Shown here in pieces: positions 10,193-29,474 of a DNA stretch of 64,000 nt (positions are counted from its first letter, which is position 1; every line of letters begins with the position of its first letter). The translations under genes were made by a program, and so were the position numbers. The DNA comes from a bacterium (GTDB lineage: Bacteria; Sysuimicrobiota; Sysuimicrobiia; Sysuimicrobiales; Humicultoraceae). Where the stretch lies: contig JAVHLI010000004.1 of assembly GCA_031082185.1 (NCBI GenBank), positions 11,608 to 75,607 on the forward strand. The letters run 5' to 3'. The notes beneath the pieces were generated by a model. It worked only from the letters and a program-made list of their open reading frames with translations, was not told where the DNA came from and did not search any database.

Positions 10193-11428
10193 CTACAGCC
10201 TGGCGATCCTGGGCGATGCAATCGCCAGCAGGCCGACCAGGACCACAACCACCGCCCCGCCCAGCGCCAGGGTCAGCGGCACGCCTACCACGCCGGCCAG
10301 GGCGCCCAGCGGCAGCGTGCCCAGTGAAAGCATCCCAAACGTGACCATGCCGTAGAGCCCCATTATCCGCCCACGCTGGTCGGGGGCCACGCTGGTCTGC
10401 AACAGCGTGTTGGCCGCGGCCATTGCCACCGCCTGACTGGTGCCGACCAGCACCAACAGCCCCATTGAGGCGGCGAACCACGGTGAGAGCGCGAACAGCA
10501 CCACGATGGCGCCGGTCGCCATCGCCGCCACCACCAGCAGCTTGCCCTTCTGCGCCGCCTCGCCGATCGCGCCCAGCAGGAACACCGCCAGGATGGTGCC
10601 GACTCCGGGCGCGGCCTGCAGCAGGCCCAGCCCGGAGGGGCCGACGCGCAGCACCTCGCGGGCCAGCGTGGGCATCAGGCGGATGTAGGGACGGCCGAAG
10701 AAGTTGATCGCCGCGACGATCCCCAAGATCGCCATCAGGTGCCGGTGGCGGATGAGCAGCCCGATCCCCTGCCGGATATCCTCCCCCACCGATTCTCGCC
10801 TCCAGGCGTTAGCCGGCAGCACGTCCATCAACCAGAGCGCCGTCAGCACGGCGATGTAGCTTGCGGCGTTGGCGAAGAAGCAGCCCGCGACGCCGACCGT
10901 GGCGATCAGCACCCCGGCCAGCGACGGGCCGAAGATGCCGGAGCCGTTGAACGCCATCGTGTTCAAGCTGACCGCCTGCATCAACTGGCGCTCTCCCACC
11001 AGGGACGGTACCAGCGACTGCCTGGCCGGCATATCGAAGGAGTTGGCGAGTGAGTTGAAGGCGCCGATCGCCAGGATCTGCCACACCTGGATGCGCCCCG
11101 AGATCGTCAGCAACCCCAGCAGGGCCGCGGAGATCATCGTGGCGGCGTTCGTCCACAGCAGTATTCGGCGGCGGTCGAAACGATCGGCCGCCACGCCGCC
11201 CAGGAAGGCGAAGAGCAGCCGCGGAACGGCCTGGCTCAGCCCCAGCAGGCCGAGATAGATGGGGTCCTTCGTGATCTGGTCAACCAGATAGCCGAGCGCG
11301 GTGAACTGCATCCACGACCCGGTGTTGGAGACGAGCAGACCGGTCCAGAGCAACCGGAAGTTGCGCTGGCGAAGCGGCGCAAAGACCTCGCGTCTTCCTG
11401 CGGGCCGCACGGCCGCGGAGTCAGACAA
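10193..11428 (-). CDS. MFS transporter.
   Basis: 411 aa with about 12 TM helices. It contains the MFS signature GGVAADRFDRRRILL. Confidence 0.8.
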   Translation of the reverse strand: MSDSAAVRPAGRREVFAPLRQRNFRLLWTGLLVSNTGSWMQFTALGYLVDQITKDPIYLGLLGLSQAVPRLLFAFLGGVAADRFDRRRILLWTNAATMISAALLGLLTISGRIQVWQILAIGAFNSLANSFDMPARQSLVPSLVGERQLMQAVSLNTMAFNGSGIFGPSLAGVLIATVGVAGCFFANAASYIAVLTALWLMDVLPANAWRRESVGEDIRQGIGLLIRHRHLMAILGIVAAINFFGRPYIRLMPTLAREVLRVGPSGLGLLQAAPGVGTILAVFLLGAIGEAAQKGKLLVVAAMATGAIVVLFALSPWFAASMGLLVLVGTSQAVAMAAANTLLQTSVAPDQRGRIMGLYGMVTFGMLSLGTLPLGALAGVVGVPLTLALGGAVVVVLVGLLAIASPRIARL

Positions 11429-17062: not shown

Positions 17063-18006
17063 CCGTGGCACCACGGGTCACCGTCGTGGGCAGCCTCAAC
17101 ACCGACCTTGTGGTCAGGGCGCCGAAGCTGCCCGAGCGCGGCGAGACGGTGATGGACGGCTCGTTCGCCGTCTTCTCGGGAGGCAAGGGTGCCAACCAGG
17201 CCGTGGCCGCAGCCAGGCTGGGAGCGAGCGTGGTAATGGTCGGCCGCGTTGGGGACGACCCCTTCGGCGCGCAGATGCGTGCCGGCCTGGAGCAGGAAGG
17301 CATTGATGCTGCGCACGTGCGCGCAACCAAGGGCACCGCATCGGGTGTCGCGCTCATCACAGTAGATCTCGCCGGTCACAACACCATCGTCGTGGCCTCA
17401 GGGGCCAACATGCGCCTGACGATCGCGGACGTGGATGCCGCTGCTGAGGTAATCGCAGAGAGCCAGGTCCTGCTGCTGCAGTTCGAGGTGCCGACGGAGG
17501 TGGTGGCACACGCTGCGGCCCTGGCAAAGCGCAGCGGCTGCCGTGTCGTGCTGGACCCGGCGCCCGCACCGGCGGACGGGTCGCTGCCCGAAGGCCTGTA
17601 CCGGAGTCTTTTCGTAATAAACCCCAACGAGGTTGAAGCCCGGGCGCTCACCGGAATCGCGGTGGCCAACGATCAGGGCGCGGCCGCTGCTGCAGACCGC
17701 CTCTTGGAGCTAGGATGCCAGGCAGCGGTCATCAAGCGCGGCGTGCAGGGTGCCTTCTTGGCGGTGGACGCGACGCGTGAAGCAGTACCGGGGATTCCAG
17801 TCAAGGCCGTGGACTCAACCGCCGCGGGTGATGCGTTCGCCGGAGCGCTGGCGGTGGCGCTGGCCGAAGGCAGGAGCCTAGCCGAGGCGGTCCGGTTCGC
17901 GAACGCCGCAGGCGCGATGTCGGTGACCCGGATGGGTGCGCAGCCCTCGATGCCACGGCGGGAGGAGTTGTTGGAGTTCGCCCGGTCACGCGGGCTTGGG
18001 CTCTGA
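17059..18006 (+). CDS. rbsK: Ribokinase.
   Basis: VVGSLNTDLV, GGKGANQA and a C-terminal DSTAAGDAF are present. Confidence 0.85.
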   Translation: MTVAPRVTVVGSLNTDLVVRAPKLPERGETVMDGSFAVFSGGKGANQAVAAARLGASVVMVGRVGDDPFGAQMRAGLEQEGIDAAHVRATKGTASGVALITVDLAGHNTIVVASGANMRLTIADVDAAAEVIAESQVLLLQFEVPTEVVAHAAALAKRSGCRVVLDPAPAPADGSLPEGLYRSLFVINPNEVEARALTGIAVANDQGAAAAADRLLELGCQAAVIKRGVQGAFLAVDATREAVPGIPVKAVDSTAAGDAFAGALAVALAEGRSLAEAVRFANAAGAMSVTRMGAQPSMPRREELLEFARSRGLGL

Positions 18007-18504
18007 GCCGCCCCCGGCCGCGTGCGCGCGCCGGGCCTCGCTGACCATCCGCCGCGCGTCCTCTGCCCCGGCCCAGCCGTGGATCTCCACCGGCTTCTGC
18101 TCGAGCGTCTTGTAGACCGTAAAGAAGTGCTGCACCTCCTTGAGGAAGTGCGGTGGCACGTGCTCCAGTTCGGTCACGCCGTCGAAGCGCGGATCGCCCA
18201 CGGGCACGGCCAGCACCTTCTGGTCGTGCCCCTTCTCGTCGTGCATGTCCAGCACGCCGATGGGGCGCACCTCCACCAGGCAGCCAGGGAACGTGGGCTC
18301 GTAGGTGAAGATCAGCACGTCCAGGTGGTCGCCGTCGTCGGCCAGGGTGTCTGTGATGAACCCGTAGTCGGCCGGGTAGTGCAGCGGCGAGTAGAGCACC
18401 CGGTCGAGCCGGATCCCGCCGCGGATAGGGTCCAGTTCGTACTTGTTTCGGCTGCCCCGCGGCACCTCGACGAAGGCCAGCACGGTCACAGCCCGTTCGG
18501 TCAT
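17986..18504 (-). CDS. ppa: Inorganic pyrophosphatase.
   Basis: Starts at Met116 of ORF 17986..18849 (MTERAVTVLAFVEVPRGSRNKYE...). GGAGGGAG lies 6 nt upstream. The extended N-terminal 115 codons are a GC artefact. Confidence 0.9.
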   Translation of the reverse strand: MTERAVTVLAFVEVPRGSRNKYELDPIRGGIRLDRVLYSPLHYPADYGFITDTLADDGDHLDVLIFTYEPTFPGCLVEVRPIGVLDMHDEKGHDQKVLAVPVGDPRFDGVTELEHVPPHFLKEVQHFFTVYKTLEQKPVEIHGWAGAEDARRMVSEARRAHAAGGGSEPKPA

Positions 18505-18935
18505 CCCCATCTCCCTCCGTCGGGCCCGGTCGCCCCCGCGTCGCGATCCGTCAGGTCCCGGACCAGCGCGCGGATGCGGCCGGCCAGGTCGTCGCGGACC
18601 GTGCGGTAGAACGTGAGATCGCGGCCGGCCGGATTCGGCAGCGGCCAGTGCAGGCTTCGCGCGCCCGGCACCAACGGGCACGCCTCCTCGGCGCACAGGC
18701 CCACCACCAGTTCGACGTCGGGCCCCAGGGCCGCCTGCAGCGGCTTGGGCATGTGGTCGCTGATGTCCACGCCGATCTCGCGCATGACCGTCACGGCCTC
18801 CTCGCGCACGCGCTCCCCGGGGTCCGTGCCCGCGGACCCGGCCCGCCAACCCGCCGGCGTCAGGGCGTTGAACAACCCCTCCGCCATCTGCGAGCGGGCG
18901 GAGTTGTGCACTCAGAGAAACAGGACGCGTGGCAT
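18501..18935 (-). CDS. Thioredoxin-coupled ArsC / LMW-PTP family arsenate reductase with an in-frame TGA at the catalytic Cys codon. It is a candidate selenoprotein or a pseudogene.
   Basis: ATG at 18935 is preceded by GAGGAGGG. The reading is MPRVLFL-TGA(18914..18912)-VHNSARSQMAEG...LCAEEACP, which aligns to the ArsC/LMW-PTP CX5R P-loop and to the Cys82/Cys89 pair. The ORF track only calls the portion after the TGA (GTG start at 18911). Confidence 0.5.
18870..18908 (-). promoter_or_regulatory. GC-rich hairpin immediately 3' of the in-frame UGA (SECIS-like position).
   Basis: On the mRNA: CACAACUCCGCC-(11-nt loop)-GGCGGAGGGGUUG. It starts 4 nt after the UGA. Confidence 0.3.
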
Positions 18936-19036
18936 GACACCCTCCTCACCGCCCCGGAGCAGTCCTGGCCCACCGTGGGCGCCGCCAGGCCCGCGACCAC
19001 GCCCGCGGCCGCCTGTACCGTGTTGGCGGGGCCGCA

Positions 19037-19693
19037 TCACACGTTCAGCTCCCGCAGCTCGCCGGTCACCATGTAGATGACCCGCTCACCGATGTTGGTG
19101 ATATGGTCGGCGGCGCGCTCCAGGTTCTGCGCCACCAGCAGCAGCTCCAGCGCCCGCGGGATGGTCCGGGGATCGCTGAGCATGTACGTCAGCAGCTCTC
19201 TGAAGACCTGGCTGCGCAGGGCGTCCACCTCGTCATCTCGCTTCGCCATGGCCTCGGCCAGGGCCGTATCTCTTCGCAGGTACGCGTCCATGGCCTCTCG
19301 GAGCATCTGCTGCACGAGTTCCTCCATGCGCGGGATGTCAATGAGCGGTTTGAGGTGCGGCTGGCCGGCCAGCCGCTTCACCGACTTGGAGATGCCCTCG
19401 GCGTGGTCGGCCAGCCGCTCCAGGTCGATGGTAATGACGAAGGCGGCCGCGATGGTCCGCAGGTCTGACGCCATGGGCTGCTGCCGGGCCAACAGGCGCA
19501 TGCAGCGGTCCTCCAGCTCCAGGTGCAGCGCGTCGATCCGGTCGTCATCCCGGACGATCCGCTCGGCCCAGTCGGCGTCCAGCGTCCGCAGCGCCTCCAC
19601 CGACGCGTGGATCGCCTCCCCAGCCATCGTCGCCATGCGGACGACGTCGGCCTGGAGCCCCTCCAACTCCCTCAGGAACAGCTCGCGAGTCAA
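19037..19693 (-). CDS. phoU: Phosphate transport system regulator PhoU.
   Basis: 218 aa with two PhoU repeats. Confidence 0.9.
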   Translation of the reverse strand: MTRELFLRELEGLQADVVRMATMAGEAIHASVEALRTLDADWAERIVRDDDRIDALHLELEDRCMRLLARQQPMASDLRTIAAAFVITIDLERLADHAEGISKSVKRLAGQPHLKPLIDIPRMEELVQQMLREAMDAYLRRDTALAEAMAKRDDEVDALRSQVFRELLTYMLSDPRTIPRALELLLVAQNLERAADHITNIGERVIYMVTGELRELNV

Positions 19694-19759
19694 CCTCGGC
19701 TCCCTCCCCCCGATGTTCTGGCCACGCCTGGGAACTCCTGGCAGGGTGCCGGCCCGGGC

Positions 19760-20593
19760 TCACCCGAACCGGCCGGTAATGTAGTCCTCGGTCCGGCGAT
19801 CACCAGGCCGCGTGAAGATCTGGTCCGTGGCACCAACCTCGACCAGCTCGCCGTCCAACAGGAACCCGGTCACATCCGAGACCCGGGCGGCCTGCTGCAT
19901 GTTGTGGGTCACGATGACAATGGTGAGCTGCCGGGCCAGCTCGCGGGCCAGCTCCTCGATGCGCAGCGTGGCTGCCGGGTCCAGGGCCGAGGCCGGCTCG
20001 TCCATCAGCAGTACCTCTGGCGAGACGGCGAGCGCGCGGGCGATGCACAGCCGCTGCTGCTGGCCGCCCGAGAGGCTGGTGCCGGGCCGCCCCAGGCGGT
20101 CCTTCACCTCATCCCACAAGGCCGCGGCGCGCAGGCTGCGCTCCACTGTCTCGTCCAGCACACGCCGGTCCCGCTCGCCGGCCAGCCGCAGCCCGGCCGC
20201 GGCGTTGTCGTAGATGCTCATGGTGGGGAAGGGGTTGGGCTTCTGGAACACCATGCCGACGCGGCGGCGGACCCGGACCGGGTCGACGCCCGGCGCGTAG
20301 ATATCGACGCCGTCCATCAGTACCCTCCCGCTGGAGCGCGCGCCGGGCACCAGCTCGTGCATGCGGTTCAGGCAGCGCAGGAAGGTGGACTTACCGCATC
20401 CCGACGGCCCGATGATGGCCGTCACCCGGCGAGGGGCGATGGTCAGGGAGACGCCACGCAGAACGTGGTGGCGGTCGAACCAGGCGTGGACGCCCTGTGC
20501 CTCGATCCCGGCGGCGTGGTCGATCAAGATCCCGGCGTCCGCCGTCACGGCGACCCCGGCCTGCATGGCGTCTGGCATCGGACCCTCCATCAT
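19760..20593 (-). CDS. pstB: Phosphate ABC transporter ATPase.
   Basis: Walker [10 protein letters not shown], plus LSGGQQQRL and the Walker B. Confidence 0.9.
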
Positions 20594-20609
20594 CGCAGCA
20601 TTCGCTCCG

Positions 20610-21455
20610 TTACCGAAGTTTCACATGGCGGGCCGCCACCGCCCGGGCGGCGATGTTGACGCTCAGCACAATGGTCATCAGGACCAGGGCGCCGGCCCAC
20701 GCCTGCCGGTGCCAGTCCTCGAAGGGCGAGACGGCGTAGGCGAAGATCTGCAGGGGCAGGGCGGCGATCGGTTGCAGCAGGTCCCAGTTCCAGAACCGGT
20801 TCCCGAACGCGGTGAAGAGCAACGGCGCGGTCTCGCCCGCGATGCGGGCCAGCCCCACCATGATGCCGGTCACGATCCCGCCGGCGGCGGTGGGCAACAC
20901 CACCCGAAGCAGCGTTCGCCACTGGGGGATACCCAGCGCCAGTGACGCCTCGCGAACGCTCTGGGGGACCAGCCGCACTATCTCCTCGGTGGTCCGCATC
21001 ACCGTCGGGATCAGCATGATCCCCAGCGCTACGCCGCCGGAGGCGGCGCTGAAATGGCGCAGGGGCAGCACCAGAATGGTGTAGGCAAACAGGCCCATCA
21101 CGATGCTGGGCACCCCGTTCATCACGTCGGCCATCAGCCGCACGGCACCGGCGAGCCGGCTGTTGGGGCATTCCGCCAGGAACGTCCCGCCCAGCACGCC
21201 GACCGGCATCCCGAGCAGCGCGGCCAGGCCCACCAGCACCAGCGTGCCGGAGATGGCGTTGGCCATCCCGCCGCCGGGCTCGCCGGCGGCCCCGGGCAGG
21301 TGGGTGAAGAATTCCAGGTTCAGGGCGCCCAGGCCGGTGCGGGCCAGGAAGAAGAGGATGAGGAACAGCGGGACCAGCGCGGCCACGGTGCACAGGAATG
21401 TCACCCCGGCCATCAGGCGGTCGGTCCAGCGGCGGCGCAGATAGGAGCGGGCCAT
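20610..21455 (-). CDS. pstA: Phosphate ABC transporter permease PstA.
   Basis: 281 aa, TM-rich, and positioned within the pst operon. Confidence 0.9.
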
Positions 21456-21458
21456 CGG

Positions 21459-22388
21459 CTACTCCCGAATGAGGCCCGGGCCCCGCGCCACGCGGGCCAC
21501 CAGCAGGCGGGCCAGGATGTTGACCGTCAGCGTGACCAGGAAGAGGACGAGCCCGGCGTAGATGATCGCGGCCACGTACAGGTCGTCGGTGGCCTCGGCG
21601 AACTCGTTGGCGATCACCGCCGCGATGGTGTAGCCCGGCGCGAGAAGCGACGCCCTGATCTGGGGCACGTTGCCGATGACCATGGTGACCGCCATGGTCT
21701 CGCCCAAGGCCCGGGCCAGAGCCAGGAAGATCGCGCCCACGATCCCTGAGCGGGCATACGGGATGACCGCGGTCCGGGTGGTCTCCCAGACGGTAGCTCC
21801 CAGGGAGAGCGCGGCCTCACGCTGCGAAGTCGGCACCGCCCGCATTACCTCGGTGCTGGCGGCGATGATGAAGGGCACGACCATGATCGCCAGGATCAGC
21901 CCGGCGGCCAGCATCCCAATGCCCAGCGGCGGCCCCTCGAACAGCGGCAGGAAGCCCAACGTCGCCTTCAGCGGCGGCGAGAGCGTCGTCCGCACCCAGG
22001 GGACCAGCACAAAGATCCCCCACAGCCCGTAGACCACGCTGGGGATGGCGGCCAGCAGATCGAGCAGGAATCCGACCGGCCGGCGCAGCCAGCCCGGGGC
22101 CAGCTCGGACAGGAAGATGGCGACCCCCAGACCCAGCGGCACGGCCAGGGCCAGCGCGACGGCCGAGGACACCAGCGTGCCGTAGACGAAGGGCAGGGCG
22201 CCGAAGTCGCCGGCGACAGGGTCCCAGGTCGAGGTGGCGAAGAACGCCGGGCCGAACTTCCGGATCGCCGGCCAGGCACCGACGGTCATCGCGGCCAGCA
22301 TGGCGGCCATGATTACCGGCACCACGCCGGCCATCGCTGCCAGCAGCCGCGCGAACAGCCGGTCGCCCATATGCGCGACGTGCCGCAC
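21459..22388 (-). CDS. pstC: Phosphate ABC transporter permease PstC.
   Basis: 309 aa, TM-rich, and positioned within the pst operon. Confidence 0.9.
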   Translation of the reverse strand: MRHVAHMGDRLFARLLAAMAGVVPVIMAAMLAAMTVGAWPAIRKFGPAFFATSTWDPVAGDFGALPFVYGTLVSSAVALALAVPLGLGVAIFLSELAPGWLRRPVGFLLDLLAAIPSVVYGLWGIFVLVPWVRTTLSPPLKATLGFLPLFEGPPLGIGMLAAGLILAIMVVPFIIAASTEVMRAVPTSQREAALSLGATVWETTRTAVIPYARSGIVGAIFLALARALGETMAVTMVIGNVPQIRASLLAPGYTIAAVIANEFAEATDDLYVAAIIYAGLVLFLVTLTVNILARLLVARVARGPGLIRE

Positions 22389-22396
22389 GGGAGCCG

Positions 22397-23455
22397 TCAG
22401 GGCAGCAACGCCTTCCCCTGCGCGGTGACCGTCCGCAGCGTGCCCTCGACGCGCGCCACCAGGCTCTTGGGCAGCTGCGCGTAGTGCAGCGGCGGCGCGT
22501 ACTTCTGGCCGTCATGGACCGCCCACCGCAGGAAGTCCACCAGGGCCTTGCCCTTGACCGGGTCGGGCTGCTCGCCGTAGATCAGGATCCACGTAAACCC
22601 GGCGATGGGGTAGACGTCCCGGCCCTCGGGATCGGTGAAGAAGATCCGGTAGTCCTCGGGGATTGCCCGCAGCGCGCCATCCATCGCCCGGGTGGTGCTG
22701 GACAGCAAGGGCCGGATGAACTGACCCGCGCGGTTGCGCACATTGCCAACGGGCATCCGGTTGGTCAGCACGTAGGCCAGCTCCACGTAGCCCAGCGCGT
22801 TCGGCATCTGCCGCACGAGGCCGGCGACACCCTCGTTGCCCTTGCCGCCGATCCCGACCGGCCAGTTCACCGACGTACCCTCGCCTACCTTCCTCCGCCA
22901 GTCGGGGCTGACCTTGCTCAGGTAGTTCACCCAGATGGCCGTGGTCCCGGACCCGTCCGAGCGGCGCACCACGATGATGTCGGCGGCCGGCAGCTTCGCC
23001 TCGGGGTTGTCCTTGAGCAGCCGGGGATCGTTCCACTTCGTGATCTTGCCCAGGAAGATGTCGGCCAGGACGCCGGGGGCAAAGTTGAGCCCGGTCCCCA
23101 CACCGGGAATGTTGTACATCGGTACCACCGCGCCGGCCACCATGGGGATGTGCAGCGGGCGGCCGCCGGCCTGGCGAATCTGCGCGTCGGTCATCGGGCC
23201 GTCGGTGGCGCCGAAGTCCACGGTCTTCGCGATGAATTGGCGGATCCCGCCGCCCGAGCCGATGGATTGATAGTTGATGCGCACGCCACGCTCGGCATCG
23301 TAGACCTGCGACCACTTGGAGTAGAGCGGGAACGGAAATGTCGCCCCTGCACCGGTGAGCGTCACCGGCTGCTGGGCGGGGGTGGTCCCCGCCGCGCCGA
23401 GCACCACGGCGGCGCTCAGGGCAAGCGCAGCGAACCACGATAGCGGATTCAACAC
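22397..23455 (-). CDS. pstS: Phosphate-binding protein PstS.
   Basis: A signal peptide followed by TLTGAGATFPFPLYSKW. GTG start; AAGGAGG sits upstream. Confidence 0.9.
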   Translation of the reverse strand: MLNPLSWFAALALSAAVVLGAAGTTPAQQPVTLTGAGATFPFPLYSKWSQVYDAERGVRINYQSIGSGGGIRQFIAKTVDFGATDGPMTDAQIRQAGGRPLHIPMVAGAVVPMYNIPGVGTGLNFAPGVLADIFLGKITKWNDPRLLKDNPEAKLPAADIIVVRRSDGSGTTAIWVNYLSKVSPDWRRKVGEGTSVNWPVGIGGKGNEGVAGLVRQMPNALGYVELAYVLTNRMPVGNVRNRAGQFIRPLLSSTTRAMDGALRAIPEDYRIFFTDPEGRDVYPIAGFTWILIYGEQPDPVKGKALVDFLRWAVHDGQKYAPPLHYAQLPKSLVARVEGTLRTVTAQGKALLP

Positions 23456-23588
23456 TGTCCGGCCTCCTTTGGCTTGGGTGGATCCGAGGGGACGCCCGAT
23501 CGGCGCGCTCCCTTCATCCCAACCCTAAACCCGAAAGGTGGTGGACAGGCCAAGGCCAGGTGAACCCTATGTCAAAGGGAGGTGAAAC

Positions 23589-24536
23589 TTACTTGAGGTC
23601 CAGGCGGTATCCGATGCCGCGCACGGCCACGAGCCGCACGCCGCCGCGGGGCTCGACTTTCTTGCGCAGCCAGCCGATGTGAGTATCGAGGGTACGAGAG
23701 TTGCCGAAGTAGTCCTCGCCCCAGACTTCGTGCAGGAGGCGCTCGCGCCGGACCACTTTGCCCTGGTGCCGCAGCAGGAGGTGCAGCAGGCCGAACTCCT
23801 TCGCGGTGAGGGGCACGGGCACGCCGGCCACGGCGGCCTCGTGGCGTTCGGGGTCTACGGCCAGACGGCCGGCCACCAGCGTTAGTTCGACGCCCGCCTG
23901 GACGACAAGGGTCTCCAGGACATTGGCGATGTCCTCGCAGCGGTCGGTGCCGGTCTCAAGCATCTCGCAGATGTCTTTCCACTTGATGATGTCCCTGGCG
24001 CTGCGCCGGCCCGAGAACAGCGCCTCGAGGGCGTCCCGCAGCACGTCGTCGCCCTGGTTCTCCAGGCGGTGCAGCGTCCGTGTGTGGGAGAAGACCTCTC
24101 GCCCGCGGCGCACCTCGCGAATCGCCTGTCTGATCTCCTGCGCCGACCGGAGCATGATCTGTCCCATCTCGCGCGCGGACGGGATCGCCCGCCGGATGCG
24201 ATAGATCGCCAGCCGTGCCGCCGCCGCCTCGATGGCGTCGAGCACGTCGTCGAGAAGCCCGGTCAGGCTCTTTAGCGTGTCACGGTCGCCAGAGGGAATG
24301 CCGGCGGCCGAGAGGGATTCGAAGAGATCGCGCGCAATGGCATCGCCTTTGTGTTCTAGATCCCGAATCGCCTGCCAGGCCTGATCGGCAGGCGTACGGC
24401 TCTCCAGCGCCCCGACGAGCGCCTCGGCGGCATCGAGGATGGCGTGCGTCATCTCCTCGAGAAGGTCGAACTCCCTCTCACGCGGAAGCGGTGCGGCGCG
24501 AGGCGATGGCACCGCGTCGGGTGAAGGATCAACCAT
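23589..24536 (-). CDS. DUF47 (PhoU-like, COG1392) domain fused to an OmpR/PhoB-type winged-helix DNA-binding domain; a one-component regulator.
   Basis: The N-terminal ~200 aa match the DUF47 pattern (EFDLLEEMTHAILDAAEAL...HRLENQGDDVLRDALEALF...KWKDICEMLETGTDRCEDIAN). The C-terminal ~100 aa are a trans_reg_C wHTH (LTAKEFGLLHLLLRHQGKVVRRERLLHEVWG...GIGYRLD). The start is set at Met26. Confidence 0.65.
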   Translation of the reverse strand: MVDPSPDAVPSPRAAPLPREREFDLLEEMTHAILDAAEALVGALESRTPADQAWQAIRDLEHKGDAIARDLFESLSAAGIPSGDRDTLKSLTGLLDDVLDAIEAAAARLAIYRIRRAIPSAREMGQIMLRSAQEIRQAIREVRRGREVFSHTRTLHRLENQGDDVLRDALEALFSGRRSARDIIKWKDICEMLETGTDRCEDIANVLETLVVQAGVELTLVAGRLAVDPERHEAAVAGVPVPLTAKEFGLLHLLLRHQGKVVRRERLLHEVWGEDYFGNSRTLDTHIGWLRKKVEPRGGVRLVAVRGIGYRLDLK

Positions 24537-24666
24537 ACGCACCGAGCATACCACGTCAGGCGCCACCGGGCGCACCGAGCGCTTCGGGGCAGGCGGAGCA
24601 CGCCGAAGCACGGGCGGGCCCGGCGCATATGCGCCGGGCCCGCCACGATCATGTATGTCGCCCGCG

Positions 24667-25758
24667 CTACCGGTACAGCGGCAGCGGGTGGGGCTGAAGC
24701 GCCGAGCCGATCCGCCGCTTCAGCAGGTCGAACACTTCCATGTCGTACTGACCTACAAAGGTAACCGCCTCGCCTGCACGGCCGGCCCTGGCAGTGCGGC
24801 CGATCCTGTGGATGTAGGTATCCACGTCCTCGGGCATGTCGAAGTTAATCACGTGCGAGATGTCGGGAATGTCCAGCCCGCGGGCGGCCACGTTGGTGGC
24901 CACCAGCACCTGGGCCTTGCCCTTTGCGAAAGCGGTCAGCGCGCGCACCCGCGCGCCCTGGGTCATGTCGCCGTGAATCACCTCGGCCGGCTGGCCCCGC
25001 TCGCGCAGGATCTTCGCAAGACGATCGGCACCCCGGCGGGTCCGCCGGAAGACAAGGGCAGAGGGCACCTCGCCGCTGGTCAGCAGCAGCCGCAGCGCCC
25101 GTACTTTGTCCTGTTCGGCCACTTCCAGGTAGTACTGCGTGACCGTATCCACCGTGGGCATCTTGTCGGCAACCCTAACCCACGCCGGGTTGCGCATGTG
25201 CCGCGCCGCGATCGTAGACACCGCATCCGGCAGCGTGGCTGAGAACAGAGCCGTCTGGCGCGCCGCCGGCGTCCGTCTGAGGATCTCCTCGACGTCGGGC
25301 AGGAAACCCATGTCCAGCATCCGGTCGGCCTCGTCCAGAACCAGGAACCGGACGCCGTCGAGCTTCACGGACCCCCGGGAGATGTGGTCGAGCAGGCGGC
25401 CCGGCGTGGCCACTGCCACCTGAACGCCGGCGCGCAGCGCGGTGAGCTGCCGCTCGATGGGCTGCCCGCCGTACAGCGCGGTAACGCGGAGCTTGGGTCC
25501 GCCCAGCGCGCGCACCGCGTCCGCGATTTGCAGGGCCAGCTCGCGGACGGGTGAGAGTATGAGCGCCTGGATCCCTCGGGCGTTACGGTCGAGGCGCTCC
25601 AGCATGGGAATCACATAGGCACCGGTCTTGCCGGAGCCGGTCTGGGCCTGGCCGGCCACATCGTGCCCGGCGGTCAGCCCTGGGATAACCTTCAACTGAA
25701 TGGGGGTGGGTTCGGTCCACCCAAGACGGGCTATCGCCCGGATGGTCTCCGGGCGCAA
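24667..25758 (-). CDS. DEAD-box ATP-dependent RNA helicase.
   Basis: Q-motif PTPIQ, AQTGSGKT, DEAD (VLDEADRMLDMGF), SAT and HRIGRTARAGRAG are all present. The true start is probably upstream of the TTG at 25758. Confidence 0.85.
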   Translation of the reverse strand: MRPETIRAIARLGWTEPTPIQLKVIPGLTAGHDVAGQAQTGSGKTGAYVIPMLERLDRNARGIQALILSPVRELALQIADAVRALGGPKLRVTALYGGQPIERQLTALRAGVQVAVATPGRLLDHISRGSVKLDGVRFLVLDEADRMLDMGFLPDVEEILRRTPAARQTALFSATLPDAVSTIAARHMRNPAWVRVADKMPTVDTVTQYYLEVAEQDKVRALRLLLTSGEVPSALVFRRTRRGADRLAKILRERGQPAEVIHGDMTQGARVRALTAFAKGKAQVLVATNVAARGLDIPDISHVINFDMPEDVDTYIHRIGRTARAGRAGEAVTFVGQYDMEVFDLLKRRIGSALQPHPLPLYR

Positions 25759-25981
25759 TACGAGGCCGCCGAACGCGGTCTCGCGCGTTGAAATGGAAAT
25801 TAGACTTACCTCCTGATTTGACCCGGGGGAAACCCGGGCCGGGTTTGAGCCGGCATCATGCGCGTGCCCACCGGTCCACCCAGCCCTGGTGAGATAAACT
25901 CCGCGGACACATGAAACGGGCGACTCAGCAGTTACATCGCCCGATTCGGAAGACGCAACTATGACGACTGGGGTTACTGTA

Positions 25982-26437: not shown

Positions 26438-27760
26438 CTAAAAAGCCGTAAGGTAACTGTCAACTTCCCACGGGTGTACGCGGGTGATGTACTCCCGCCA
26501 CTCCAGTCGCTTGGCCCGTACAAGATGATCTACGATGTGGCTGCCGAGCGTCTCAGTGATGAGCTCGTCGGCCAGGAGTTCCCCCACCGCCTCGTCGAGG
26601 TTGCGGGGAAGCACCCGGATGCCCAACTGATCCAGCTCGTCTTCCGTCATCGCGTAGAGGTTCCGGTTGAGCGGCGGGCCGGCGTCCAGCCCTCTTGTGA
26701 TGCCGTCGAGGCCGGCGGCCAGCATCACCGCCATGGCCAGGTAGGGGTTGCAGGAGGGATCCGGCATGCGCAGCTCCACGCGCGTGCCGTCCCCGCGCGA
26801 CACCGGGACGCGAACCAGCGGCGACCGGTTGCGCTCGGCCCAGGCGATGTAAACCGGTGCCTCGTACCCCGGCACCAGGCGCTTGTAGGAGTTGACCAGG
26901 GGGTTGGTCACCGCGCACATGCCCCGCGCGTGGGTCAGCAGCCCAGCGACGTATTGCAGGCAGGTCGCGCTGAGCTGGTGGGTGCCCTCAGGGTCGTAGA
27001 AGGCGTTCTTCCCCTCGCGGTACAGCGACTGGTGGGTGTGCATCCCCGACCCCGCGATGCCGGTAATGGGCTTCGGCATGAAGGTCGCGTGAAGCCCGTG
27101 GCGCCTGGCGATCGTCCGCACCACCAGGCGGAACGTGGCGATGTTGTCGGCCGCGCGCAGCACGTCGGCGTACTTGAAGTCAATCTCGTGCTGGCCGTTG
27201 GCCACCTCGTGGTGCCCGGCCTCGACCTCGAAGCCCATGGCTGAGAGCGCGGTCACCATGTCTGCCCGCGCCTCTTCACCCTTGTCCACGGGCGCCATGT
27301 CGAAGTAGCCGGCCCGGTCGTGCGTCGTCAGCTTGGGCTGGCCGTCGGCGTCGGTGGGAAAAAGGAAGAACTCGCACTCCGGCCCGGCCATCATGGTGAA
27401 CCCACTGCGCGCGGCAGCGGCGACGACGCGACGCAGCACGGAGCGGGGATCGCCCGCGAACGGCTCCCGCTCGGCGGTATAGACGTCGCAAATCAGGCGC
27501 GCCGTGGCCCCCTCCCGGTTCTTCCACGGAAAGAGCGCGAAAGTCTCGCGATCCGGTATGAGATACATGTCCGACTCCTCTATGCGCACGAAGCCCTCGA
27601 TAGAGGAACCGTCAAACAGGATCTCGTTGTCGAGCGCCCTCTCGAGCTGCTCCACCGGGATCTCCACGTTCTTTAGGGTACCCAGGATGTCCGTGAACTG
27701 CAGGCGGACAAACCTCACACCCCACGCGTGGGCCTGCTCAAGCACCTGTTCTTTCGTCAT
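26438..27760 (-). CDS. glnA: Glutamine synthetase type I.
   Basis: Starts at Met42 (MTKEQVLEQAHAWGVRFVRLQFTDILG) with an AGGAGGAG RBS. GS signatures are present throughout. Confidence 0.9.
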   Translation of the reverse strand: MTKEQVLEQAHAWGVRFVRLQFTDILGTLKNVEIPVEQLERALDNEILFDGSSIEGFVRIEESDMYLIPDRETFALFPWKNREGATARLICDVYTAEREPFAGDPRSVLRRVVAAAARSGFTMMAGPECEFFLFPTDADGQPKLTTHDRAGYFDMAPVDKGEEARADMVTALSAMGFEVEAGHHEVANGQHEIDFKYADVLRAADNIATFRLVVRTIARRHGLHATFMPKPITGIAGSGMHTHQSLYREGKNAFYDPEGTHQLSATCLQYVAGLLTHARGMCAVTNPLVNSYKRLVPGYEAPVYIAWAERNRSPLVRVPVSRGDGTRVELRMPDPSCNPYLAMAVMLAAGLDGITRGLDAGPPLNRNLYAMTEDELDQLGIRVLPRNLDEAVGELLADELITETLGSHIVDHLVRAKRLEWREYITRVHPWEVDSYLTAF

Positions 27761-29474
27761 CACCGCTCCTCCTAAGTGCCGTGGTCTGAACCTCGAACCC
27801 CATCTCGGCCGCCCGTGCCACCAGGTACTCGATGTTCTCGGTCTTGGTGCGGTCCCCCAGGCTGATGCGCTGGGTGCACCCATCGAGCGCGATGATCACA
27901 GTCTCTGCCAGGCAGGCAGGCACAAGGCCCGGACCGTAGCCCAGGTTGATATTCCAACTAGGATTCCCGGGAAGGCGCACAACTCCTCCTGGGATGACCT
28001 CGGCTCCCGGCATTGCCTTCACCGAATCGTCCACATCATAGGGCCTTCCCAGGTCTATGATGAGGCAGCCGTCCCTCACGTGTTCGGGGAAGATGACCGG
28101 GCGCGGCGAGGAGGTGGCGGTGAAGATGGCGTCGGCCTCTCGCAGCAACCCGTAGTCGGTCGTCGCCTCGATGCGCGCGCCGGGGTGGCGGCGCGCCAGC
28201 AACTCCCGCGACCGCTCCAGCCGTGACGCATCGGTCCCCAGCATGACCAGGCGCCCCACGTGCTCCACCACCTGGCGGCAGATTCCGAAGCCCACCACGC
28301 CGTTCGCCCCGACCACCGCGATCGTGGCGTCTGCCGGATCAATGCCGCGGGAGCGAAGCCGGTCGAGGATCACGGGCACCGCCATCTTCACGGTGCCGGC
28401 GGTATAGGCGCCGCCGTTGGTGACCGCGATCCCGGACCTTGCCGCCACCTCGACGCCCTTGTTCCCGACAACGGACCAGTAGGCGCCCAGCCCCAGAACC
28501 GTGGCGCCCAGATTCTCGGCAAGGTGGGCGGCCTGCACCGCCCGCCGCACCGCCAGACGGGGATGCGCTCGGATCTGGTCGGGCAGCAGCGGCACCCCAA
28601 TCAGGTAGACGCGGGCCCGCCGACCGTCGGCGGTGATGACCGGGTGGATATCGTCAACCTTCATGGGCCGCACGAAGCGCGCGACCCGGCGCACCAAGGC
28701 GTCGGAGATGATCCCGCGCCGGCGCAGGGGCATCAGCCAGCGGAACCTGCCGGCCTCCCAGTTGTCGTCAACGGTCATCGGGTGGACCAGGAATGCGCAC
28801 ACGGCATCGTCGCCCAACAGCAGCGGCAGCGGAAGGCGTTCGCCCATCCTGGGCTCGGTACCGTCGGCTATCCGCGCCAGGTGTTCCTTGTGGTTCCACA
28901 GGCTCACTATCGCAAGCGCCAGACCCAGCGCCAGGTACGGCGCACGGCCGCCCAGCGCCCACAGGCCCGCGGGCAGGCTGGCCGTGGCAAGCACCGTCGC
29001 CAGCGAGAGATAGCCCCAGCGCCGCCCCGCGATCCTCGGCACTCCCAGCGTCACCAACGCCACCACCGCGGGGATCGCCAGCGCCGGCCAGGGCACCGCG
29101 CCCAGGGCGCCCAGGCCGAGAAGCGCGCCCGCGGTTACGACAACGCCCTTCACCCGCACCGCTGCCGGCGGCGCGAGAAACCAGAAGGGCGAGTAGGCGT
29201 GGCCCGCTACAACCGCGGCCGCGGAGGCGGCCAGGGTCCAGTCGCCGCCGCCCAGCAACCGGGCGGGGACAACCGCGAGCCCTCCTTTGAGCAGATCAAG
29301 CGCGGCGGCCAGCGCGAGGGTATGGGCTCCGGCCGCGGCGGCCACCGTCCCCAGGCCGAGGTTGTGCGCGGAGTAGCGGCGCAGATCCACACCGCGCAGG
29401 AGCCGGCCCACGGCGTATCCGGTGGGAAGGCCTCCCAGAGCGAAGGCGAGGACGGTGGCTACAATGCTCAGCAC
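27738..29474 (-). CDS. plsY: Fusion protein: glycerol-3-phosphate acyltransferase PlsY (N-terminal, about 200 aa, multi-TM) plus an acyl-ACP reductase (AAR)-like Rossmann domain (C-terminal, about 350 aa).
   Basis: PlsY end motif: HKEHLARIADGTEPRMG. The C-terminal domain aligns to cyanobacterial AAR: VVGANGVVGFGICRQV, GGAYTAGTV, and a conserved Cys in LVPACLAET (compare AAR FACFAEA). Confidence 0.7.
   Translation of the reverse strand: MLSIVATVLAFALGGLPTGYAVGRLLRGVDLRRYSAHNLGLGTVAAAAGAHTLALAAALDLLKGGLAVVPARLLGGGDWTLAASAAAVVAGHAYSPFWFLAPPAAVRVKGVVVTAGALLGLGALGAVPWPALAIPAVVALVTLGVPRIAGRRWGYLSLATVLATASLPAGLWALGGRAPYLALGLALAIVSLWNHKEHLARIADGTEPRMGERLPLPLLLGDDAVCAFLVHPMTVDDNWEAGRFRWLMPLRRRGIISDALVRRVARFVRPMKVDDIHPVITADGRRARVYLIGVPLLPDQIRAHPRLAVRRAVQAAHLAENLGATVLGLGAYWSVVGNKGVEVAARSGIAVTNGGAYTAGTVKMAVPVILDRLRSRGIDPADATIAVVGANGVVGFGICRQVVEHVGRLVMLGTDASRLERSRELLARRHPGARIEATTDYGLLREADAIFTATSSPRPVIFPEHVRDGCLIIDLGRPYDVDDSVKAMPGAEVIPGGVVRLPGNPSWNINLGYGPGLVPACLAETVIIALDGCTQRISLGDRTKTENIEYLVARAAEMGFEVQTTALRRSGDDERTGA

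Follow-up and report, generated by a model that had tools for sequence, protein, structure and literature searches.

The 64-kb window analyzed here (64,000 nucleotides of contig JAVHLI010000004.1, from the phylum CSP1-3/Sysuimicrobiota) encodes a protein, hereafter REG, that joins an N-terminal DUF47 (PhoU_div; PitR-like) domain to a C-terminal PhoB-type winged-helix effector domain directly upstream of the phosphate transport operon pstSCAB-phoU. REG is a one-component protein, i.e., input and DNA-binding output share one polypeptide without phosphotransfer domains. The gap between REG and pstS carries an array of direct repeats which, together with an in-register −10 hexamer, has Pho-box geometry. 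We consider it reasonably probable that REG is a PhoB-like activator of the Pho regulon, with the PitR-like domain as its predicted gate. The first-pass annotation of this DNA had proposed such a PhoR/PhoB-independent route, in which a PhoU-like sensor of phosphate status is wired directly to a PhoB-type output, and this interpretation is supported as far as computation goes. No characterized member of the architecture was known to its author, and no description of a PF01865-PF00486 fusion was found in the literature searched (DUF47, winged helix, one-component, PhoU, and AbrB themes). The elements on which the argument turns are as follows.

23589..24536, minus strand: REG, 315 amino acids (aa), PitR/DUF47 plus OmpR/PhoB-type winged-helix effector, no receiver domain (open reading frame, Pfam, AlphaFold2 model, homologs)
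23901..24476, minus strand: PhoU_div/DUF47 six-helix domain, aa 21-212 (Pfam PF01865; 3L39 by sequence and by Foldseek)
~24273-24305, minus strand: degenerate loop, REG aa 78-88 (alignment with standalone DUF47 proteins)
23598..23879, minus strand: OmpR/PhoB-type effector domain, aa 220-313, with N-terminal β-sheet, α1-α3, and wing (Pfam, PDB matches, Foldseek)
23533..23587, minus strand: Pho-box-like array of five 11-bp direct-repeat units (pattern statistics, position weight matrix [PWM], comparison of loci)
23522..23527, minus strand: candidate −10 hexamer TAGGGT, positions 6-11 of a sixth unit, in register (conserved TAnnnT)

The REG start codon is ATG, and the longest in-frame open reading frame (ORF) begins at a GTG at 24611, which adds 25 residues. 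The nearest homolog (P0001) is likewise 315 aa long and 95% identical over its full length. The residues preceding position ~20 differ in length across the family and are disordered in the AlphaFold2 model. This model, derived from a 51-sequence alignment (mean predicted local distance difference test score, 88.4; predicted template modeling score, 0.74), places six long helices at residues 20 to 213, a linker of ~6 residues, and the effector domain at 220 to 313, the latter folded as a β-sheet, three helices, and a wing. The two domains named in the first-pass annotation, DUF47 and trans_reg_C, were both recovered by profile hidden Markov model (HMM) searches and by predicted fold; PF01865 and PF00486 each scored well above the respective Pfam cutoff (61.6 versus 24.4 bits and 86.4 versus 26.2 bits).

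PF00486 (Trans_reg_C) matched residues 240 to 312 of REG (E=1.4e-24). Among NCBIfam models, the top family for the C terminus was PhoB (TIGR02154), a partial match over model positions 129-226 that did not reach the cutoff of this equivalog (71.7 versus 296.2 bits). RegX3 (2OQR) was the best PDB match by sequence (E=2e-20), followed by GlnR, VicR, and PhoB (1GXP; E=7e-17), and Foldseek superimposed the domain on 1GXP, i.e., the PhoB effector on Pho-box DNA, with a template modeling (TM) score of 0.85 and a root mean square deviation of 1.9 Å. Identity to the DNA-binding domain of Escherichia coli PhoB is 41%, aligned from the first β-strand to the C terminus. PhoB contacts σ70 through its α2-loop-α3 region; REG and PhoB align there with no gap, and the transactivation loop has the same length in both proteins and keeps the W/G residues. 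A complete PhoB-type effector has thus been retained, the replaced part being precisely the receiver. For the recognition helix, the sequence is RTLDTHIGWLRKK in REG and RTVDVHIRRLRKA in PhoB, with differences at three positions (V197T, R200G, and R201W in PhoB numbering). The nearest nonfused relatives of the REG effector in the genome collection are Acidimicrobiia regulators with ~50% identity, encoded in pstCAB-phoU-kinase-regulator clusters. Apart from these, Actinomyces spp. (loci L070-L076) encode a GlnR-like atypical OmpR-family regulator of 223 aa (e.g., L071 9620-10291) with an effector ~48% identical to that of REG, convergent with pstB in L070-L073 and L076. These "receiver-less" matches beside pst were rejected as a second fusion, since the proteins are GlnR-like atypical regulators with a degenerate receiver.

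At the other end of REG, the PF01865 match spans profile positions 12-213 of 214 (E=8.7e-17), and the model helices of the domain are 20-44, 50-75, 82-111, 119-143, 149-175, and 180-213. The Bacteroides "PhoU-like" DUF47 protein 3L39 was matched by sequence (E=3e-24) and by Foldseek (E=5.6e-9; TM [target], 0.85; root mean square deviation, 2.0 Å; 206 columns). The classical PhoU model PF01895 remained below threshold on REG (E=0.35; 11.7 versus 23.5 bits). We compared signature residues in an alignment of 40 fused proteins and 122 standalone DUF47 representatives. Residues E61/H62/D65, D96/D97/D100, E159/N160/D163, K185-W186-K187, and E194/D198/C200/E201/D202 are invariant in the fused family, and E61, D65, D96, D97, D100, E159, D163, E194, D198, E201, and D202 are 86 to 100% conserved among the standalone representatives. 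These acidic signature residues of DUF47 lie in helices 2, 3, 5, and 6. Conservation of Cys200 and His62 extends to standalone PitR. In contrast, the loop between helices 2 and 3 (T-F-x-T-P-x-D-R-E-D-I), which is the top conserved loop of standalone DUF47 proteins (72 to 98% conserved), is degenerate or variable throughout the fused family, the window version being AAGIPSGDRDTL. Conservation of the acidic site suggests that REG has retained a ligand or metal site, and decay of the loop may reflect loss of one interaction surface, possibly the PitA-facing one.

The first-pass annotation had called for an architecture census, which uncovered a conserved family rather than a one-off. Both domains are present in all of the best 120 matches to REG in a collection of 5.8 billion proteins (65 to 95% identity), so that the count of the fusion, at least 120 clusters, is a lower bound. 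Such conservation led us to reject an assembly or frameshift artifact. In a library clustered at 50% identity, the fused family is reduced to one clearly full-length representative (P0121), P0122 (313 aa, with part of the query aligned), and fragments, and the next relatives are standalone DUF47 proteins of ~205 aa with 30 to 40% identity. Within a one-genome-per-species collection, the fusion is encoded at 39 loci, all of them in metagenome-assembled genomes (MAGs) labeled Armatimonadota, "bacterium," Bacillota, or ANGP1. Some of these MAGs are named Candidatus Fervidifonticultor, Thermofontivivens, or Calidihabitans, and most of the others bear the label Armatimonadota; Fervidifonticultor, Calidihabitans, and the family Thermofontiviventaceae are named in the description of CSP1-3/Sysuimicrobiota (PMC11604079). 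Given this distribution of homologs and loci, the fused family is real and conserved and appears to be confined to one uncultivated lineage. Its members are named "DUF47 family protein" or "OmpR family regulator" in databases. In a further, different fusion within the superfamily (P0130; 451 aa), a PhoU_div domain comes after two PhoU repeats (PF01895).

REG precedes pstSCAB-phoU in ~21 of the loci, as in the window. Elsewhere, the layout varies: the gene downstream of REG encodes a divergent PstS of the PBP_like_2 type (L029); phoU directly follows REG with no pst genes between (six loci; L004, L010, L014, L022, L032, and L036); REG lies in the order pst'-phoU'-REG-phoU (L010 and the split pair L037+L036); or the pst operon is divergent from REG (L005). 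Extra pstS genes, some of them 51 to 55% identical to the main copy, occur ahead of REG (L016, L017, L026, and L044) or downstream (L023 and L043). REG is almost always linked to pst and/or phoU, and this linkage, above all that to phoU, has thus persisted through several rearrangements. The first-pass annotation had also stated that DUF47 proteins accompany PitA or NptA transporters. This holds for standalone DUF47/PitR proteins, which pair with PitA, but not for NptA, which has a PhoU domain of its own (PMC13170248). No pitA gene lies beside REG in the window, where its neighbor is pstS. At one locus (L015 1343-2953, minus strand), a canonical pitR-pitA pair is divergent beside REG-pstS, in a layout that resembles the pap-pitH1/pstSCAB supercluster of Streptomyces. 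The PitR protein encoded there (205 aa; a single DUF47 domain) is 36% identical to the N-terminal domain of REG, and the layout is consistent with an origin of REG by pitR duplication plus fusion.

A search of all six frames of the window that started from E. coli PhoB, CheY, and EnvZ found neither a receiver nor a histidine kinase. From 23 response regulators and 15 kinases we then derived profile HMMs; these recovered the two-component systems of control loci, and their sole match in the window was the REG effector domain, bearing out the first-pass statement that both are missing from it. REG itself yielded no Response_reg Pfam match, and its N terminus is all-helical in the model; a weak match of the helical domain to response-regulator profile positions 21-65 was discarded as spurious (the corresponding RegX3 alignment scored −1.8 bits). 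Since tests found neither a receiver nor a phospho-acceptor Asp in REG, and no kinase in the window, REG is not a response regulator, and phosphorylation cannot control it. Two-component systems do occur in the flanks of some REG loci (L011, L012, and L020), with KdpD- and BaeS-like kinases near REG in L012 and L020. The MtrA/BaeSR-like pair of L020 and the KdpDE-like pair of L012 were rejected as PhoBR for scoring below the PhoB/PhoR NCBIfam cutoffs, and no PhoBR-type pair was found near pst/phoU in the 39 loci (~479 kb; the pairs of L012 and L020 were scored) or in the window. phoR and phoB are not among the genes in the supplementary tables of one CSP1-3 genomics paper, which list pst genes, and phosphate regulation is not discussed in two CSP1-3 genomics papers.

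REG and pstS are both on the minus strand and are separated by 133 bp (23456-23588), so that REG lies directly 5′ of pstS in the same orientation, as the first-pass annotation had it. The putative target operon comprises the following genes.

22397..23455, minus strand: pstS, phosphate-binding protein, first gene of the putative target operon (PBP_like_2; TIGR00975 PstS, 383 bits versus cutoff 205)
21459-22388, minus strand: pstC (BPD_transp_1)
20610-21455, minus strand: pstA (BPD_transp_1)
19760-20593, minus strand: pstB (ABC_tran; pstC, pstA, and pstB syntenic in ~20 related loci)
19037..19693, minus strand: phoU, two PF01895 repeats, last gene of the pst operon (PF01895, E=2e-45; TIGR02135, 217 bits versus cutoff 130)

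PhoB-box-like direct repeats, which the first-pass annotation had proposed to look for in this gap, are present, statistically exceptional, and conserved across orthologous loci. The array begins 1 nt past the REG stop codon (the intervening nucleotide is G) and reads, unit by unit, TTTCACCTCCC / TTTGACATAGG / GTTCACCTGGC / CTTGGCCTGTC / CACCACCTTTC, with the last two units degenerate. The unit core is cTT(C/G)AC, and the unit consensus is (C/T)TT(C/G)AC-n-Y-n-S-S. On the coding strand, the array is followed by GGGTT and then by the TAGGGT hexamer; further downstream, pstS starts with GTG, preceded by the ribosome-binding site AAAGGAGG. The pattern TTSAC-N6-TTSAC occurs in the window only within this array (two overlapping matches versus 0.14 expected; none of 100 shuffles reached two). 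Similarly, a three-unit PWM scored 33.6 at the array versus a maximum of 16.2 in 30 Markov-shuffled windows, and no second site in the 64 kb exceeded a score of 14. The classical E. coli Pho-box replaces the −35 element and ends 10 bp upstream of the −10. No −35 was found at 17 ± 1 bp from TAGGGT, and a σ70 consensus scan predicted no promoter in 18800-25900. Tandem Repeats Finder did not detect the array, and a generic repeat search returned one 19-nt pair at a spacing of 22. The array is thus mostly missed by generic repeat and promoter finders and rests on pattern statistics and comparative analysis. Rfam searches found no RNA family anywhere in the window, which leaves a riboswitch or leader explanation for the 133-bp gap unsupported.

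The comparative evidence comes from 24 loci with an intergenic region after REG. These regions contain 61 TTSAC cores versus 5.4 in shuffles and 41 core pairs 11, 22, or 33 bp apart versus 0.02 in shuffles. Pairwise distances between cores are almost exclusively 11, 22, 33, 44, and 55 bp, and just two cores lie on the opposite strand. A TAnnnT hexamer (TACGCT, TAGGGT, TATGGT, and similar) occupies register position 6 in 20 of the 24 loci, and in 10 loci its distance from the last strict core is exactly 10 bp; the last core (9-10 bp) and the preceding one (~20 bp) are both off −35 spacing. The intergenic sequences are otherwise unalignable, and the repeat motif recurs at different promoters. 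The PWM training set included the arrays directly after REG that lie ahead of mgsA in L011, L021, and L031. Sites with the same layout outside the training set were found upstream of a divergent phoU (L002), of REG itself (L005, L022, and L023), of a divergent pstS (L005), and of second pst operons (L010, L025, and L037); between tandem pstS genes, ahead of the second copy (L023 and L043); upstream of a small ORF after phoU (L017, L044, and L025); and between mgsA and pstS (L031). The mgsA gene directly follows REG behind the array at three loci (L011 ~11025, L021 ~11026, and L031 5681-6295), and the MGS domain was confirmed for those of L011 and L031. Methylglyoxal synthase frees phosphate from dihydroxyacetone phosphate, and mgsA is thus a plausible member of the Pho regulon. 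The small ORF is conserved, encodes 63 to 80 aa without a Pfam match, and accompanies pst-phoU operons (L017 15557-15799, L044 ~10399-10614, and L025 17740-17931, and also L002 4320-4168 and L019 14879-15010); it is absent from the window.

REG can be placed among known systems by each of its halves. The effector shares its fold with PhoB of E. coli, PhoP of Streptomyces and Bacillus subtilis, and RegX3 of Mycobacterium (~49% identity to the last), and the predicted REG targets resemble theirs, being 11-bp-periodic direct repeats with a TTCAC-like core, near the Streptomyces consensus. Predicted targets in common are pstS, phoU, and the regulator itself, with the REG arrays in the place of the −35 and ending 10 bp before the −10. 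Unlike these regulators, REG has no receiver and no phospho-acceptor Asp, and no cognate kinase was found in the window. The direct-repeat unit of Streptomyces PhoP, G(G/T)TCAYYYR(G/C)G, is 11 nt long, occurs in 2 to 6 copies per operator, some of them poorly conserved, and lies near the −35 of pstS and phoU (PMC2275107; PMC7866108); the REG-locus unit is nearly identical to this experimentally defined consensus. GlnR-type orphan or atypical OmpR regulators of Actinobacteria are also winged-helix activators that act on tandem repeats, and their control does not involve Asp phosphorylation; the REG effector has GlnR among its best PDB matches, and a GlnR-like regulator lies beside pst in Actinomyces. 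In such proteins, the receiver fold persists in degenerate form; the corresponding part of REG is an unrelated domain made up entirely of helices.

As for the N terminus, profile HMMs, fold, and signature residues make it a bona fide relative of PitR (Staphylococcus aureus), Pap (Streptomyces), and BT4638 (3L39). These standalone proteins are ~205 aa long, are almost always encoded beside pitA, and act through PhoR, whereas REG is a 315-aa fusion to a DNA-binding domain, is linked to pst/phoU rather than to pitA, and has a degenerate loop motif. Genetic evidence has established PitR as a negative accessory regulator of PhoPR (PMC13170248), and S. aureus PitR forms homodimers (PMC11705898). The survey of 2026 in which this accessory role of PitR was established covered single-domain PhoU_div proteins only. 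PhoU (PF01895), encoded in the pst operon of the window, belongs to the same superfamily and shares with REG the helical repeats with acidic motifs and the phosphate theme; unlike REG, it has no DNA-binding domain and signals to PhoR, and REG fails the PhoU model. Archaeal AbrB/SpoVT-PhoU fusions are annotated as PhoU-domain regulators and, to our knowledge, are uncharacterized. With REG they share the concept of a PhoU-superfamily domain joined to, or counted as, a DNA-binding module, but they differ from it in PhoU branch (PF01895), DNA-binding fold, and domain order. PhoU-like "transcription factors" have been counted in Pyrococcus (PMC6316755).

These features suggest a working model in which REG would be the master regulator of the Pho regulon in CSP1-3/Sysuimicrobiota, the phosphorylatable receiver of a PhoB/PhoP/RegX3-type effector having been replaced by a DUF47 domain of the PhoU superfamily. 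The winged helices would bind head to tail on the 11-bp cTT(C/G)AC repeat arrays, which would stand in for the −35 and end 10 bp upstream of the TAnnnT −10 at the pstS promoter. Bound there, REG would recruit RNA polymerase in the manner of PhoB and turn on pstSCAB-phoU when phosphate is scarce; arrays in other genomes would likewise serve the promoters of phoU, REG, extra pstS genes, mgsA, and the small ORF. The DUF47 domain would provide the dimer contact, as proposed on the basis of the S. aureus PitR homodimer (PMC11705898), and gate DNA binding by phosphate status. At plentiful phosphate, this domain would keep REG inactive, which fits the role of PitR as a negative regulator (PMC13170248), either through a metal or phosphate ligand at the acidic site or, more likely, through docking to PhoU/PstB of the active transporter. 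Docking is favored because of gene linkage, and the recurring adjacency of REG and phoU points to PhoU, possibly with PstB, as the likeliest source of the signal; the phoU product of the window is a candidate signaling partner. Activation rather than repression, binding, the nature of the signal, and its partner are what we infer from the DNA and protein sequences.

Several observations weigh against this model. Every family member comes from uncultivated MAGs, and the loci are related, so that cross-locus counts are not fully independent. Four REG-phoU loci (L004, L014, L032, and L036) have no array in the sequence available. The preference of the effector for PhoB/RegX3 is narrow, at 71.7 versus 65.8 bits for other OmpR-family models in NCBIfam and 76.6 versus 71.4 bits for GlnR, an OmpR-family member, in the PDB. 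In two-hybrid assays, S. aureus PitR did not interact with PhoR or the transporters (PMC11705898), which makes the partner part of the model speculative. Furthermore, a repressor could make equal use of a core 10 bp away from the −10. REG would then act at replete phosphate, when the ligand- or partner-bound protein coats the array and blocks RNA polymerase, and would leave at low phosphate, so that a constitutive −10-only promoter fires. The proximal unit indeed lies between the −35 position and the −10, PitR and PhoU are genetically negative regulators, and the arrays upstream of REG (L005, L022, and L023) would suit negative autoregulation. High-GC bacteria often use TAnnnT promoters without a −35, and the missing −35 is therefore weaker evidence of activation here than it would be in E. 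coli. We nonetheless regard repression as unlikely, because PhoB class II activation classically relies on a box in helical register with the −10 and ending 10 bp before it (PhoB-σ4-DNA structure 3T72), REG keeps the length and W/G residues of the PhoB transactivation loop, the −10 hexamers are weak (TACGCT and TAGGGT), and RegX3, PhoP, PhoB, and GlnR mainly activate from tandem arrays, as in the transcription activation complex with six PhoP molecules (9JI5).

A canonical PhoR-PhoB pair may also coexist elsewhere in the genome, since the scan covered the window and ~479 kb of loci rather than whole genomes. REG could then be an auxiliary modulator beside an orthodox system, i.e., a PitR paralog that either competes at Pho boxes or shares their occupancy, or one that titrates PhoU or PhoR. 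Two-component systems do exist in the phylum, and in many bacteria several PhoU-family accessory regulators converge on one two-component system (PMC13170248). Yet the loci and the window are devoid of a PhoBR-type pair near pst/phoU, REG holds the place in which phoBR often clusters with pst (as in the Acidimicrobiia loci), and, at promoters of several types, the box consensus and the presence of REG vary together, so that we rate this scenario as somewhat less probable still than repression. That REG senses a nonphosphate cue such as arsenate, a divalent metal, or redox, with an incidental linkage to pst, strikes us as very improbable: the genes behind the arrays all concern phosphate (pstS, phoU, mgsA, and REG), the pst/phoU linkage has been kept through several rearrangements, and the invariant Cys200, which together with several His residues might hint at such a cue, is shared, like His62, with standalone PitR. 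In its favor, DUF47 domains have no established ligand, and an ArsC-like low-molecular-weight phosphatase is encoded after phoU. Extension of the favored model of a PitR-gated activator to the whole phylum is a bolder step. We propose only tentatively that CSP1-3/Sysuimicrobiota may do without PhoR-PhoB altogether and run the Pho regulon with a single protein that needs no phosphorylation. The PitR/PhoU-superfamily domain of this protein would directly couple phosphate status to the binding of Pho boxes and the recruitment of polymerase there, and the cue could be either a ligand bound to the protein or the state of PhoU-PstB.

How PhoU-family proteins (PhoU, PitR, and NptA's PhoU domain) perceive and relay phosphate sufficiency is a long-standing question. 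In model bacteria, the route runs from transporter to accessory protein, membrane kinase, and response regulator, and its biochemical reconstitution is hard. REG combines an accessory-type domain and a PhoB-type output in one soluble polypeptide with a predicted, well-defined DNA target, thus making an in vitro readout of what DUF47 senses possible. If the bolder reading is true, no transcription factor before REG would have had a PhoU-family domain as its immediate allosteric input, and REG would offer a minimal system in which to learn what such domains sense. The Pho-box/PhoB effector module would also appear to be drivable without phosphorylation. For a phylum that is uncultivated yet widespread in soils and hot springs, the arrays outline a predicted Pho regulon for the first time (pstSCAB-phoU, additional pstS genes, mgsA, the small ORF, and REG). 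The finding also flags a family that NCBI names merely "DUF47 family protein." What is new here is the conserved Pho-box-type operator and this first outline of the regulon; the module itself would be of a known kind, a Pho-regulon activator, with a PhoU-superfamily domain in the place of phosphorylation.

Downstream of phoU, the window encodes the ArsC-like low-molecular-weight phosphatase and an inorganic pyrophosphatase (17986-18911, minus strand). The order of phoU followed by phosphatase and/or pyrophosphatase is kept in L001, L003, L004, L010, L032, and L034, and the pst operon or regulon may thus extend past phoU. Farther away, a 578-aa ORF (27738-29474, minus strand) encodes an unusual fusion of PlsY (G3P_acyltransf, aa 9-202) to a C-terminal Shikimate_DH-like NAD(P)-binding domain (aa 381-494).

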